DNA of 64,000 bases from contig JBFWRC010000012.1 of the NCBI GenBank assembly GCA_050249115.1, positions 19,540 through 83,539 of the forward strand, written 5' to 3'. The DNA is from Beijerinckiaceae bacterium (GTDB lineage: Bacteria; Pseudomonadota; Alphaproteobacteria; Rhizobiales; Beijerinckiaceae). This document shows, one piece after another, positions 1,267-6,737 of this stretch. The notes beneath the pieces were generated by a model. That model saw nothing but the letters and a program-made list of their open reading frames with translations. It was not told where the DNA came from and did not search any database. Every line of letters begins with the position of its first letter. The first letter of the stretch is position 1. A program made the translations under genes and the position numbers.

Positions 1267-1917
1267 ATGATGCTGTTTGTTGGCCTGGGAAATCCCGGCA
1301 GCCGTTACGCCAACAACCGCCACAACATCGGCTTCATGGCGATCGAAGCGATAGCGCGCGCTTACAGCTTCCCGTCTTTCCGGAACAAGTTCCAGGGTCT
1401 TCTCAGCGAGGGCACGATTGGCTCCGAACGTGTGGCGCTGTTGATGCCGCAAACCTTCATGAACGAAAGCGGCCGCGCTGTCGGTGAAGCCGTCCGTTTC
1501 CACAAGTTCGATCTGTCGGATATTTATGTTTTCCACGACGAACTCGACCTCGCCGAAGCAAAACTGCGGGTGAAGACGGGTGGTGGAAATGCCGGCCATA
1601 ACGGCCTGCGCTCAATCACCAGCCACATTGGTAACGATTACAAGCGCGTGCGTATCGGCATCGGGCATCCCGGCGACAAGGATCGCGTACATGGCCACGT
1701 CCTTTCCGATTTCGCCAAGGCCGACCGCCCCTGGGTCGATGCGATGATCGATTCCATTGCCCGCAACGCCGATCTGATTGCGGCGCGGAATGGCGCGGAA
1801 TTTCAAAATCGTGTCCACCGGGCAATGGAAGACGCCGGCTTCGCCGAAAAGAAGCCGCCGAAAAAGAAGGACGGCAAGGATGAACCGGGCAGCGAGAACC
1901 CGAATGCGGCGCAATAG
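1267..1917 (+). CDS. pth: Peptidyl-tRNA hydrolase
   Basis: [30 protein letters not shown] and GHNGLRS motifs. Start moved to the ATG after GGAG. Confidence 0.97.
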
Positions 1918-1929
1918 CGCAGAGATGGA

Positions 1930-1943
1930 TTGATCGAGATCAA
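1930..1943. promoter_or_regulatory. FNR/FixK box
   Basis: Perfect TTGAT-CGAG-ATCAA. Confidence 0.8.
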
Positions 1944-2002
1944 CGCCATCGTGTGCCCATGCGGAAAAATTCCCCCATCACTTTCGTCAGGGGGAACCGT
2001 TC

Positions 2003-2110
2003 ATGAACAGCGCAGAAACGATGTATCTTGTTCTTGCGACAGTAGCTTTTCTTGCTTTCGCAGTGTCCCTCGGCATGAACTCGGCACAATACTGGCGCGA
2101 CAATCACTGA
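2003..2110 (+). CDS. 35-aa single-pass membrane micro-protein
   Basis: MNSAETMYLVLATVAFLAFAVSLGMNSAQYWRDNH*, with a GGGGGA RBS and an FNR box upstream. Below the ORF-track length cutoff. Confidence 0.65.
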   Translation: MNSAETMYLVLATVAFLAFAVSLGMNSAQYWRDNH

Positions 2111-2145
2111 ACCGGGATTGCCGGCGCGGACAGCGCGAGCCCGTC

Positions 2146-3009
2146 TTAAAAGCCGGCGAGGTTTTCCAGCGATTTGCCCTCGGCTGCATGCTGGCTCCGG
2201 GTTGCGGCGAATGCTTCGGCAACCGGCGGCGGCAGCATCACTTCCCGGGAAAACTCCGGCCGTGCCAACAGCTTCTGGTACCATGTCCACACATTGGGGT
2301 GCAGGCGCGCGAACGGATAGGCCGCATGCTCCAGCCGGTTCGTGTAGATGAACCAGGCGATGTCGGCGACGCTCAGCGTATCGTCCAGAACATGGGCATG
2401 CGTCGCAAGTCTCGCGTCCAGATCGGAGAAAGCCTGGCGGAACCGTCCCGCGGCGCCTTTCGCCACCGCATCGGTGATGCCCTCTTTCGCGTAAGTTTGC
2501 CAAAAACCGATCTCGATGGCGCGCCGCCCGTCGTTCTGTCCGCCGACAGTCCCTGACCCCGACTTTGCAAAAACCTCGAGCGCATCGGCGCTTTTGGGCG
2601 GTCCCGGCGGATTGAACACGAACCGGAAACTGAGCGCGCGGAGATCGAGATGCATGTCGTCTTCCAGCTTCAGAAGCTTGCGCGCTTCGCCGGCCGTCTC
2701 GGCAGCAAGGAGTTTCGGCTCGGGAAACTTGCCTTCGAGATATTCGATGATGTCGTTGCTTTCGATGTAAACGTCGCCATCGTCGACCAGAACCGGCACA
2801 AGACCGCGCGGGTTGATGCCGAGGTACCAGGGCGTCAGATTCTCGTTGGCCATGAGGTCGACGGGATGCGATTCCCATTCTGCGCCCTTCAGATTGAGAA
2901 ATATCCGCAGTTTCTGCGAGCAGGACGAAAAAGGAAAATGAAAGACGTGCAGGCCTTTCCAGCCGAGCACTTCTTTCGTCAGCACATCTTGATCCGCCAG
3001 CTTGACCAT
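2146..3009 (-). CDS. Glutathione S-transferase family protein
   Basis: FSSCSQK, INPRGLVPVL, ESNDIIEYL and SVADIAW motifs. Start moved to the ATG after GGAGGGGAGG. Confidence 0.88.
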   Translation of the reverse strand: MVKLADQDVLTKEVLGWKGLHVFHFPFSSCSQKLRIFLNLKGAEWESHPVDLMANENLTPWYLGINPRGLVPVLVDDGDVYIESNDIIEYLEGKFPEPKLLAAETAGEARKLLKLEDDMHLDLRALSFRFVFNPPGPPKSADALEVFAKSGSGTVGGQNDGRRAIEIGFWQTYAKEGITDAVAKGAAGRFRQAFSDLDARLATHAHVLDDTLSVADIAWFIYTNRLEHAAYPFARLHPNVWTWYQKLLARPEFSREVMLPPPVAEAFAATRSQHAAEGKSLENLAGF

Positions 3010-3161
3010 CTTTCCTCCCCTCCGGCATCGCCGCGCCGGCCAGTTATCAGCGCCCGGCCGTTTTGTCCCGGACGCTTGCGTTTTGCACGGCATCGTTTCA
3101 TACACGCGCCAATTCCGCAACACGGTCGCGTATGCGCGCCGCAACGAGCGAACGAATATCC

Positions 3162-4259
3162 ATGGGCTTCAAGTGTGGCATTGTCGGTCTGCCGAATGTC
3201 GGCAAATCGACCCTTTTCAACGCATTGACGCAGACTGCCGCAGCGCAGGCCGCGAACTATCCGTTTTGCACCATCGAACCGAATGTCGGCGATGTGGCGG
3301 TGCCCGATCCGCGGCTCGATGCCCTGGCGCAGATCGCGTCCTCGAAGGAAATCATCCCCACGCGTCTGACCTTCGTCGATATCGCCGGACTGGTCCGCGG
3401 TGCATCCAAGGGCGAAGGCCTCGGCAACCAGTTTCTGGCCAACATCCGCGAATGCGACGCGATTGCCCATGTTGTTCGCTGTTTCGAGGATGGCGACGTC
3501 ATCCATGTCGAGGACCGGATCGACCCGCTTGCCGATATCGAAGTGATAGAGACCGAGCTGATGCTCGCCGATCTCGACAGCCTGGAACGCCGCGTCGTCA
3601 ATCTGGAAAAGCGCGCCAAGCAGAACGACAAGGAAGCCAAGGCGACCCTCGATATCGTGCAGCGCTGCCTTGTTCTTCTGCGCGACGGCAAACCGGCCCG
3701 CATGGCGGAGGTGAGCGCGGAGGAACAGCCGCTTTTCGAAACGATGGGCCTGTTGTCGTCGAAACCTGTGCTTTACGTCTGCAATGTCGAGGAAGATTCA
3801 GCCGCCGAAGGCAACGCCTTTTCGGCGAAGGTCGCAGAATACGCGAAGGCGCAGAACGCTGTCAGCGTCGTCGTATCGGCCAAGATCGAGAGCGAAATCG
3901 CCGTGCTCGCACCGGAGGAACAGAAGGATTATCTCGAGGCGGTCGGCCTTGAGGAGCCCGGCCTCAACCGCGTCATCCGCGCCGGATACTCCCTGCTCGG
4001 GCTGATCACCTATTTCACGGTCGGGCCCAAGGAAGCACGCGCCTGGACCATCGAAAACGGCACCAAGGCGCCACAAGCCGCGGGCGTTATTCACACCGAT
4101 TTCGAGAAGGGCTTCATCCGCGCCGAGACCATCGCCTATAGCGACTACGTTTCGCTCAAGGGCGAAGCCGGCGCGCGCGACGCCGGTAAAATGCGCCTCG
4201 AGGGCAAGGAGTACACGGTCGCCGATGGCGACGTGATGCACTTCCGCTTCGCCAATTGA
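3162..4259 (+). CDS. ychF: Redox-regulated ATPase YchF
   Basis: MGFKCGIVGLPNVGKSTLFNALT, ANYPFCTIEPN, DIAGLVRGASKGEGLGNQFL and a TGS domain. Confidence 0.98.
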   Translation: MGFKCGIVGLPNVGKSTLFNALTQTAAAQAANYPFCTIEPNVGDVAVPDPRLDALAQIASSKEIIPTRLTFVDIAGLVRGASKGEGLGNQFLANIRECDAIAHVVRCFEDGDVIHVEDRIDPLADIEVIETELMLADLDSLERRVVNLEKRAKQNDKEAKATLDIVQRCLVLLRDGKPARMAEVSAEEQPLFETMGLLSSKPVLYVCNVEEDSAAEGNAFSAKVAEYAKAQNAVSVVVSAKIESEIAVLAPEEQKDYLEAVGLEEPGLNRVIRAGYSLLGLITYFTVGPKEARAWTIENGTKAPQAAGVIHTDFEKGFIRAETIAYSDYVSLKGEAGARDAGKMRLEGKEYTVADGDVMHFRFAN

Positions 4260-4304: not shown

Positions 4305-4502
4305 TTACGACTTCTTCATCGGGCAGGTCGACAATCCAACCAGGCTATAGGCCGGGCAGGTTGCGAACAGGCCCGTGAAAAGCGGTATGATGCCGATCAG
4401 GCCCCACCAGGTCTTCGGACCGACAAAAATCAGCGCCAGCAGAACGAGGCCCACGATAATGCGCAGCGCGCGGTCGATACCGCCTACATTATTCTGAAAC
4501 AT
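4305..4502 (-). CDS. DUF2892 (YgaP-like) small membrane protein
   Basis: NVGGIDRALRIIVG ... CPAYSLVGLSTC. Confidence 0.88.
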   Translation of the reverse strand: MFQNNVGGIDRALRIIVGLVLLALIFVGPKTWWGLIGIIPLFTGLFATCPAYSLVGLSTCPMKKS

Positions 4503-4562: not shown

Positions 4563-4576
4563 TTGTCTGTGATCAA
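4563..4576. promoter_or_regulatory. FNR/Crp-like box upstream of the DUF2892 gene
   Basis: Minus strand TTGAT-CACA-GACAA, one mismatch from TTGAT-N4-ATCAA, centred about 67 nt upstream of the ATG. Confidence 0.55.
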
Positions 4577-4603: not shown

Positions 4604-5272
4604 TCAGGAAATCTGCCCGATCAAGCCAAGACCGTGCCGGTCGATCACGTCGATAGCGCCGCGGCGAAGGCCGACGAGTTTCTGCCGCGCAAAAGCTTGC
4701 AACTGCCGCGTCACGACTTCGCGGGCGGACCCGATCTCGTCCGCAAGCGCCTGATGGGTGATCGCAACCGGCGATCCTGCCGGTTTCGACAACAGGGCTT
4801 TTGCAAGACGCGCATCAACGCGCACGAAGGCGATAGTCTCGAGAATCCGGGTCATGTCGGCCATGCGTTCGCCAAAGCGCGAAAACACGAACTGGCGGAA
4901 TGCCCGCGAGGAGGCGGTCAATTCGTCGAACAGACCAAGCGGCACGACAACCAGCGTGATGCCGGTTTCGGCAACGCCCTCGGCGGAATATTCCCCGCCC
5001 GCCGCGGCGCACAACGTCGTCTGGACACAGGTTTCGCCAACACCGACGCGGTAGAGCGTCAGCATGCGCCCGTTTTCGGACGTCAGCGAGACCCGTACCC
5101 GGCCATCGAGCACGAGCACGAAGCCCCGGCAAGGCGACCCCGGTGAAAAAAGCACCGTACCGGCGGGCATTTGCACGGCTGGCAAAGCTTCAAGGCGTGC
5201 GCGTTCAGCCGGCTCGATCTGCGCGAGCGGCGAATAGGCGTCGAGCCACTTGTCCCATTCGCCGCCTGTCAT
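4604..5272 (-). CDS. Crp/Fnr family transcriptional regulator
   Basis: Cyclic-nucleotide-binding-like domain and HTH (THQALADEIGSAREVVTRQL). No N-terminal FNR Cys cluster. Confidence 0.9.
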   Translation of the reverse strand: MTGGEWDKWLDAYSPLAQIEPAERARLEALPAVQMPAGTVLFSPGSPCRGFVLVLDGRVRVSLTSENGRMLTLYRVGVGETCVQTTLCAAAGGEYSAEGVAETGITLVVVPLGLFDELTASSRAFRQFVFSRFGERMADMTRILETIAFVRVDARLAKALLSKPAGSPVAITHQALADEIGSAREVVTRQLQAFARQKLVGLRRGAIDVIDRHGLGLIGQIS

Positions 5273-5705: not shown

Positions 5706-6737
5706 ATGTTCCATTTCGAAGACTTTCCCGAAAACAGCGTCCACGAATACGGCGCTTTCGAAGTGACGGCAGAGGAAATCGTATCCTTTGCGCGCGAATT
5801 CGATCCGCAGCCGTTTCATCTCGACGAGGCGGCGGCGAAGGCGAGCCTGCTCGGCGGGCTTGCCACTTCGGGCTGGCAGACCGCGGCCATTTCGATGCGC
5901 CTGCATTGCCTGCATCTGTTGAAGGATGCTGCCAGCCTCGGTTCGCCGGGCATTGCGGAAATGAAATGGCTGAAGCCGGTCCTCAAAGGATACAAGGTTC
6001 GCCTGCGAACGAAAATTTCGTCGGCGCGGCGCTCGCAATCGCGCAGCGGACTGGGCGTGCTCGGTCTCGAAACGACAATGCTGAACCAGTCCGGCGAGGA
6101 ATTGATGTGGAACCGCGGCACGGTCTTCATGGCCTGCCGCGACGCGCCGCCAGACCTCACGCTCTACGATCCTTCCGCGATAGCACGCGCCCCGCAATGG
6201 ACTTCGCCGCCGGACCTCCTTTCCAGACCTGCCGATGCGGCCGACGACGATGGCGTGCTGAGCGGATGGTTCGACGATCTGAAGATCGGCCGCACACTCG
6301 ACCTCGGCGTTCACACATTCGAACCCGACAACATCATTCGCTTCGCCAGAAAATGGGATCCGCAGCTGTTTCACATCGATCCCGAAGCAGCCGCGAACGG
6401 ACCTTTCGGTGGATTGACGGCCTCGGGCTGGCACACGGGCGCAGCCGGCATGCGCCGCCACATTCTCACCCGCGACAAGTATCAGGCGGAAGCTGCCCGG
6501 CGCGGCCTTCCTGCATCGCCGCGCGGCCCCTCGCCCGGCTTTCGCGACATGAAATGGCTGGAGCCAGTCTTCGCCGGCGACACCCTCCACTATTACTCGA
6601 CGCCAGTCGAAAAGCGGAAAACGTCCCGGCCGGGATGGGGCATCCAGTTCACCCGCTTCGAGGGCGTGAACCAGCACGGCCGCAAGGCTTACGAATATCT
6701 CAGCGCGGCCCTGTGGCCGCTGAAGCCCGGCCGCTGA
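5706..6737 (+). CDS. Tandem MaoC/NodN-type hotdog dehydratase (two domains)
   Basis: Two copies of F-A-R-x-[FW]-D-P-Q-x-F-H-x-D ... G-L-x-[TA]-S-G-W-[QH]-T. Confidence 0.85.
   Translation: MFHFEDFPENSVHEYGAFEVTAEEIVSFAREFDPQPFHLDEAAAKASLLGGLATSGWQTAAISMRLHCLHLLKDAASLGSPGIAEMKWLKPVLKGYKVRLRTKISSARRSQSRSGLGVLGLETTMLNQSGEELMWNRGTVFMACRDAPPDLTLYDPSAIARAPQWTSPPDLLSRPADAADDDGVLSGWFDDLKIGRTLDLGVHTFEPDNIIRFARKWDPQLFHIDPEAAANGPFGGLTASGWHTGAAGMRRHILTRDKYQAEAARRGLPASPRGPSPGFRDMKWLEPVFAGDTLHYYSTPVEKRKTSRPGWGIQFTRFEGVNQHGRKAYEYLSAALWPLKPGR

Follow-up and report, generated by a model that had tools for sequence, protein, structure and literature searches.

CydX, CydH (CydY) and CioY are approximately 30-37 amino acids long, contain one transmembrane (TM) helix, are usually left unannotated and are linked to low oxygen (PMC12648545; PMC4325964). 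Small proteins with a single TM helix also belong to the cbb3 oxidase that is controlled by FixK/FNR, namely CcoQ/FixQ and CcoM (PMC12648545; PMC4742706). CydX, CcoQ, AcrZ, MgtS and similar proteins act by helix-helix packing with a partner (PMC12648545).

The extended consensus of the alphaproteobacterial FnrN/FixK box is TTGANCNNGATCAANG (PMC4999443). The consensus for FixK2 is TTG(A/C)-N6-(T/G)CAA, and the FixK2-dependent start of nosR lies 40.5 bp from the box axis (PMC5582078). Class II promoters of FixK2/FnrN, e.g. those of nosR, napE and fixNOQP in B. diazoefficiens, combine such a box, with its axis approximately 40.5-41.5 bp before the start, with a weak -10 and no -35 element (PMC4999443; PMC5582078). 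Alphaproteobacterial low-oxygen regulons have been studied chiefly via large operons.

The locus described here lies in a 64-kb stretch of DNA, referred to as the window, from a metagenome-assembled genome (MAG) of a landfill; the sequencing runs found to contain it are all DNA runs. It has in common with the FixK2/FnrN promoters the box consensus and, as predicted here, the distance from box axis to start, a weak -10 and the lack of a -35 element. Positions 1930-2110 probably form a self-contained mini transcription unit, in which a class II promoter of the FnrN/FixK type serves a gene for a small membrane protein.

The locus in the window

The predicted operator, TTGATCGAGATCAA, occupies positions 1930-1943 and is assigned from its sequence and conservation. 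It lies between pth (1267-1917, + strand; TIGR00447, E 6e-57) and a convergent glutathione S-transferase (GST) gene of 287 amino acids (2146-3009, - strand; GST_N/GST_C), which is followed by ychF. The pth stop codon is 12 nt 5' of the box with no terminator in between. On the + strand, a -10-like element, AAAAAT(T), is proposed at 1965-1971, 22 nt 3' of the box, and the Shine-Dalgarno (SD) sequence GGGGGA is found at 1990-1995, its last G separated from the ATG by 8 nt. The open reading frame (ORF; + strand) begins with the ATG at 2003, ends with the TGA at 2108-2110 and encodes a predicted single-pass membrane protein of 35 amino acids, MNSAETMYLVLATVAFLAFAVSLGMNSAQYWRDNH. An inverted repeat, TTCCCCC-N13-GGGGGAA, spans 1970-1996 and folds into a hairpin whose 3' arm on the + strand contains the SD. 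Downstream, a weak terminator-like hairpin (UUGCCGGC...GCCGGCGA, 2118-2165, + strand; fold -27.1 kcal/mol, z -1.2) is followed by GGUUUU and overlaps the last codons and the stop of the convergent GST gene.

The initial annotation had described the box, the GGGGGA ribosome binding site and the ATG, and these are present in the sequence as it gave them. Its placement of the ORF alone between pth and a convergent GST gene is borne out by the annotation of the neighbours. It had also called the gene unannotated, and the exact 35-residue peptide is absent from a collection of 15 billion proteins. Its arithmetic for the transcription start was right as well: with the box centred at 1936.5, an axis at -40.5/-41.5 places the predicted start at 1977/1978 (+ strand) and leaves a leader of approximately 25 nt (25-26 nt before the ATG). 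A scan for consensus promoters and terminators made no call at the small-gene site, neither for the -10 at 1965-1971 nor for the 2118-2165 hairpin; for the -10 this is expected of an activator-dependent promoter. No Rfam family was matched in the window or in the region.

The perfect form of the box, TTGAT-N4-ATCAA, occurs once in the 64-kb window against 0.05 copies expected from shuffled sequences, and the looser form, TTGA-N6-TCAA, also once against 0.74 expected. By the looser count the lone box is merely mildly unusual, and its weight comes from conservation. A chance palindrome beside a chance ORF in an intergenic spacer would agree with the looser count and with the abundance of open frames in high-GC DNA. 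This reading is effectively refuted by conservation, i.e. by seven homologues, purifying selection, a box at fixed geometry and joint loss of box and ORF, and it is left with a negligible likelihood.

A small family in a conserved slot

A phmmer search of 1.84 billion representative proteins returned one match, P0001 (36 amino acids, 65% identical, E 5.6e-6). P0001 is encoded on the Logan contig L001 (4.6 kb), where the same convergent GST gene (75% identical) follows it and the box upstream of its ORF is perfect, TTGATCCCGATCAA. Five more distinct members were recovered through synteny, by tracing the closest GST and YchF homologues to their contigs. These are MTTIETIYLAGSVLAFAAFAISLGSNALQWNRINRK (L095), MTTYETLYLIVSCVAFLAFGIVLGSNALQWNRDNRK (L102), MTTIEVIYLTGTVLAFLVFGVALGSASYEWNRDQKK (L100), MTTMGIIYIIGTVIAFGAFALSLGLNSLEWNRNRRD (L101, where the ORF is at 5988-6098 on the - strand) and MTMTFWEYFFIYGTIIAFAAFAVTLISNSMRSPGD (L098/L099). 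The family thus consists of the window protein and six homologues of 35-36 amino acids, 36-63% identical, from related uncultured Hyphomicrobiales. The lineage is assigned from YchF, which is 84-86% identical to the YchF proteins of Methylocella, Enterovirga and Beijerinckia. All seven genes occupy the slot from pth to the convergent GST gene; in L001, a DUF805 gene is inserted after pth.

A profile built from the seven members and run against the six-frame ORFs of approximately 107 loci and the window matched the members alone. It found no paralogue of the small ORF in the window, and the gene is single-copy at every locus. Scans based on GST across genome and metagenome contigs gave 93 loci, with GST at most 74% identical, and none had the ORF or the box. 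No match was obtained by tblastn of the peptide against plasmids or with a degenerate DNA pattern for AFA.SLG.NSAQ in JGI metagenome contigs. The family is narrow: seven lineages of uncultured soil and water bacteria. The gene had been called before in just two of the seven homologues and carried a family name in none. By sequence comparison, the 35-codon frame founds a small new protein family.

Evidence that the frame is coding

All members keep the frame with its start and stop and a length of 35-36 codons; the remaining five frames are interrupted by stops or unconserved. Between the window and L001, dN/dS is 0.19 and 18 of 31 differences fall at codon position 3 (P 0.004). In three disjoint pairs, codon position 3 accounts for 60 of 110 differences (P 4e-6), and pN/pS over all pairs is 0.30-0.82, synonymous sites being nearly saturated. 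Per-member statistics overstate independence because of the phylogenetic relatedness of the seven members. Near-identical strains, represented by contigs of four other metagenomes (95-99% identical), differ from the window by three third-position changes that are synonymous (2044, 2056 and 2062) and by one that replaces a residue (2019 C>T, T6M); the box is unchanged. From this selection we infer translation, and the 35-codon frame is taken as a genuine protein-coding gene. The purifying selection and the homologues also uphold the proposal of the initial annotation that a small protein gene had been overlooked here.

The T6M allele was found in contigs of three other metagenomes (one unspecified, one from marine sediment and one from soil). 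Threonine occupies position 6 in four of the seven family members, and the Thr6 of the window may be a minority allele.

Longer versions of the frame were considered and rejected. In L001, L095 and L102, an in-frame ATG lies in or beside the box, where it comes from the sequence 'TCAATG'; the resulting extensions are unconserved and begin 5' of the predicted transcription start.

The same data bear on whether the box could drive a non-coding or antisense transcript that, under low oxygen, interferes with the convergent GST gene, the ORF being incidental. The transcript would run head-on into the GST 3' end with just a weak terminator between them, and GST adjoins the unit in all members. However, selection specific to codon position acts on this very frame, and start, stop, length and SD are conserved. 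Equally similar GST homologues also exist without the unit (L015, L096, L097 and L104). Those of L015 (2366-3658), L096 and L097 are 74-76% identical and lie in unrelated contexts (beside a convergent dnaE2-like polymerase gene, TctA/TctC and luciferase-like/ABC genes, respectively), which shows that GST has moved or been duplicated independently of the box and ORF. Interference with GST is accordingly rated very unlikely.

Linkage of the box to the small gene

The initial annotation had suggested checking if homologues keep the FNR box, and the box is present in seven of seven members. Six are perfect TTGAT-N4-ATCAA; the seventh, in L100, is TTGATCTGTAGCAA, which still fits the FixK2 consensus TTG(A/C)-N6-(T/G)CAA. 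The half-site columns are 0.99 conserved, versus 0.5-0.6 in the 12 nt 5' of the box, the central N4 and the 20-nt spacer. A 'TG' 3' of the box in five to six of the seven members completes the extended consensus; the window box with its trailing CG matches that consensus, the trailing G included.

Six members place the ATG 67-79 nt after the box, and in L101 the distance is 172 nt. Counted from the box, a hexamer whose last base is T is seen at +27 to +29 in six of seven (AAAAAT, GAAAAT, TGAAAT, CATGAT, GCTAAT and CATCCT), and L095 has an A-run (CAAAAA / AAAAAA) where the others have this hexamer. All seven members thus place a -10-like hexamer or an A-run at class II spacing, and all have a G-rich SD at the same place. 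The junction between pth and the box is tight (12-20 nt) in five of seven, and hairpins are found 3' of the stop codon in most members.

Loss of the unit provides a second line of evidence. Two loci, L104 and L105, keep the order prs-L25-pth-GST-ychF with GST 73% identical, and their 97-nt gap between pth and GST has neither the ORF nor the box. The GST tree joins L104 to the ORF-bearing L100 as its sister (99/95 support) and places all ORF-bearing loci within one clade of 11 rows with moderate support (82/87). By this placement the box and ORF were probably ancestral to the clade and were lost whole in L104/L105, a loss that the tree indicates is recent. Together, the conserved class II geometry and the joint loss with the ORF assign the FNR/FixK-type box to the small gene.

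The spacer of L104/L105 (2825-2921) contains just a GCCGCA-N8-TGCGGC hairpin with an A-run in its loop.

Two operon arrangements were rejected. Co-transcription with pth is opposed by the 86-nt gap to the small ORF, by the predicted promoter of the unit itself and by L001, in which, alone among the lineages, a gene for a 538-residue DUF805 membrane protein (1831-3447) stands between pth and the unit, with box and ORF intact. Co-transcription with GST is opposed by the convergent orientation of that gene.

Two members differ from the rest upstream of the ORF. In L100, pth and the small ORF are separated by an AT-rich spacer that far exceeds those of the other members in length, and two further FNR-like sites lie upstream of the proximal one-mismatch box; one of them, a perfect TTGA-N6-TCAA (TTGAAATGACTCAA), precedes the ATG by approximately 204 nt. 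In L101 the predicted 124-nt leader has a very stable fold (-48 kcal/mol) and contains an upstream ORF of 38 codons, and a strong hairpin with a U-rich tail lies 3' of the stop codon. This leader may represent a different mode of post-transcriptional control.

The protein and its possible partners

The small protein had been described as having one hydrophobic helix, and structure prediction agrees. AlphaFold2 gives one continuous helix over residues 3-34 with a mean pLDDT of 94.8, and the best 19-residue Kyte-Doolittle window reaches 2.17 at residues 7-25. In size and in its one predicted helix it resembles the generic small single-pass inner-membrane protein, which has at most 50 amino acids and one hydrophobic helix of approximately 19-23 residues and is translated. 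The N-terminus is acidic and the C-terminal tail is polar and neutral to basic, which suggests an N-out/C-in topology.

The family motif is M-T-T-x-E-x-x-Y-L ... A-F-x-A-F-[AG]-x-x-L-G-x-N ... W-N-R. Residues A15, F16, F19 and L23 are invariant and Y8, E5, A18, G24, N26 and R32 nearly so; together they form one face of the helix. The conserved face, AF..F[AG]..LG, has a small-xxx-small pattern, and its conservation moment is 0.26 compared with 0.13 in shuffled sequences (P 0.036). Such a face favours packing against a specific helix partner.

The initial annotation had gone further and proposed an oxygen-regulated accessory subunit of a respiratory or transport complex in the manner of CydX or CcoQ. 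What stands of this is a protein-coding small gene with its own FNR/FixK-type box, the two being conserved together; a linked or family-matched respiratory or transport partner did not emerge at the loci checked. In Pfam (E at most 10) and NCBIfam, none of the seven members could be related to CydX, CydH, CcoQ, CcoS, KdpF or any other family, and no PDB chain matched the small protein. No oxidase, transporter or kinase gene lies beside the unit in neighbourhoods of approximately 5 kb on either side at the seven loci, where the neighbours are pth, L25, prs, GST, ychF, DUF805 and YgaP-like genes. The likeness to CydX and CcoQ as accessory subunits is therefore one of functional analogy only.

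The leader hairpin

The 1970-1996 hairpin folds at -14.9 kcal/mol on the + strand and at -16.7/-18.5 kcal/mol on the - strand. In the six members with a short leader, a zone that begins where the -10 ends and reaches approximately +5 is complementary to the SD zone (-9.6 to -19.2 kcal/mol), with P 0.001-0.02 against shuffled sequences in each member. The stems themselves differ: TTCCCCC/GGGGGAA, TTCCCCGCA/TGCGGGGAA, GGCCCCG/CGGGGCC, GCCTTCG../..CGGGGC, GCTCCG/CGGAGT and CCTC.GCCC/GGGT.GAGG.

In all six, the start predicted from the -41.5 geometry falls at the 3' edge of the 5' arm, so that RNA initiated from the box would not contain the anti-SD arm. The computed probability that the SD is unpaired rises from 0.18-0.30 to 0.33-0.73 in the box-initiated RNA in five of the six. 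With the pth stop so close to the box and no terminator between, read-through RNA from pth is expected, and its SD would be closed. We infer that the hairpin may act as start-site-gated translation, by which pth read-through is silenced and box-initiated RNA is open. A compact leader of this kind could explain how a tiny gene 12 nt behind a housekeeping gene escapes constitutive expression.

The hairpin may instead be a terminator for GST and not a gate on translation. In four members (the window, L001, L095 and L102) the opposite strand gives the more stable fold, and in three of them (the window, L001 and L095) a U-run follows it there, so that it resembles an intrinsic terminator of the convergent GST gene. 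In L100 and L098, the + strand fold is far more stable (-14.9 vs -9.3 and -17.8 vs -11.7 kcal/mol) and there is no U-run. The two roles, gate and GST terminator, may coexist.

If GST mRNA ends at the 1996-1965 hairpin, its 3' UTR would be antisense through the whole small ORF. This arrangement has a bearing on a further reading, in which the protein is a membrane peptide resembling type I toxins, held off by an SD-sequestering leader and the antisense GST 3' UTR and released under specific stress. The protein has the features of such a toxin, i.e. fewer than 60 amino acids, one TM helix and short tails, and its SD is predicted to be paired in the longer transcript. Primary transcripts of type I toxins typically need processing for translation, and some of these toxins belong to stress regulons (PMC12648545), which counts for this reading. 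Weak matches to Pfam Hol_Tox were also seen, at an E of 0.31 and in two of the seven members, and are not significant. The antisense overlap would be complete where a U-run (U4-U6) follows the opposite-strand hairpin, as in the window (UUUUU, 1969-1965), L001 and L095; however, this is just three of the seven members. The gene is moreover single-copy, vertically inherited on the GST tree and fixed in a housekeeping slot, with a history of loss rather than mobility. The conserved face of the helix, the polar tail and the acidic N-terminus point to specific packing and not to a pore, and neither a dedicated antisense promoter nor an antitoxin RNA was seen at the locus. A toxin-like role is for these reasons considered improbable.

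The candidate activator

One gene of the CRP family is found in the window, a Cys-bearing Crp/Fnr-family regulator at 4604-5272 (- strand), 2.6 kb away from the unit. Downstream of it, a YgaP-like/DUF2892 gene is annotated at 4305-4502 (- strand). The 4604-5272 regulator is neither FixK- nor FNR-like, and the closest solved structure is the uncharacterised 3dv8. The same gene and promoter could be served by a CRP/FNR paralogue that does not sense oxygen, with this regulator and an NnrR-like NO sensor as candidates, in which case the signal would be thiol, NO or another stress. The recognition helix of the regulator, R-E-V-V-T-R, contains E-x-x-T-R, which is close to the E-x-x-S-R of FNR and FixK. 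A degenerate FNR-like site, TTGATCACAGACAA (gene orientation; 4563-4576, - strand), lies 67.5 nt before the YgaP-like start, compared with 66.5 nt for the box and the small ORF, and L095 retains the same pair of regulator and YgaP genes. In Rhizobiales, many paralogues recognise near-identical boxes (PMC4999443), a further point for this alternative. On the other side, L101 has the ORF and the box and no such regulator nearby, L104/L105 have YgaP without the small ORF, and the box of the small gene is a perfect FnrN/FixK match including its flanks whereas the YgaP site is degenerate. An activator of this other kind is a lesser possibility than one of the FnrN/FixK type, though it is the likeliest of the alternatives weighed here.

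In L104/L105, TTGTTCCTGATCAA, with one mismatch, lies upstream of the YgaP-like gene.

Proposed mechanism

In the mechanism that we favour, an activator of the CRP/FNR family, of the FnrN/FixK type, would bind the palindrome centred at 1936.5 and recruit RNA polymerase in class II fashion to the weak -10 AAAAAT (1965-1970), with transcription starting near 1977. The resulting leader of approximately 25 nt would carry a free GGGGGA SD, and a protein of 35 residues with one TM helix would be made. Its acidic N-terminus would face out and its polar/basic C-terminal tail in. The face formed by A15-F16-x-x-F19-[A/G]20-x-x-L23-G24, followed by N26, would pack against a larger membrane protein or against itself. 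In read-through RNA from pth, the anti-SD arm (1970-1976) would pair with the SD, and translation would proceed from the gene's own regulated start only.

A more specific version may be offered tentatively. Here, the 70 bp would act as a start-site-gated switch with the anti-SD arm placed between the -10 and +1, the hairpin would also end the GST mRNA in some lineages, and the peptide would act in hypoxia as a clade-specific subunit or modulator of a membrane complex, e.g. a terminal oxidase. This fuller version is possible and clearly less secure than the mini transcription unit as such.

Significance and comparison with known systems

Gene callers systematically miss small membrane proteins, and this family is a case in point. 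The locus provides a comparative example of a lone micro-gene under a FixK/FnrN-type box, and the family motif and conserved helix face can guide searches for partners. The biology is not of a new kind, and a narrow range in uncultured bacteria limits the immediate reach of the finding.

Fold-back inhibition of translation was reportedly described for the IS10/IS50 transposase by Davis, Simons and Kleckner in 1985. In IS10/IS50, as proposed here, the segment that pairs with the ribosome binding site lies 5' of the gene's own start, so that only external read-through RNA is silenced. Unlike IS10/IS50, the leader described here would shield a regulated gene of the chromosome from constitutive read-through out of pth, and its hairpin may serve the opposite strand.

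The promoter differs from the described FixK2/FnrN targets in what it serves. Its start is a predicted one, and the gene behind it stands alone, has 35 codons and lies in a housekeeping slot (pth/ychF), whereas those targets are respiratory or denitrification operons.

The protein can be set beside the oxidase-associated small proteins in the same way. Unlike CydX (PF08173, YbgT_YccB) and CydH, it has no sequence match to these proteins and no cydAB or cioAB neighbours at the seven loci. Unlike CcoQ/FixQ, it has no match to PF05545, lies outside ccoNOQP/fixNOQP and, at 35-36 residues, is shorter than CcoQ, which has approximately 50.
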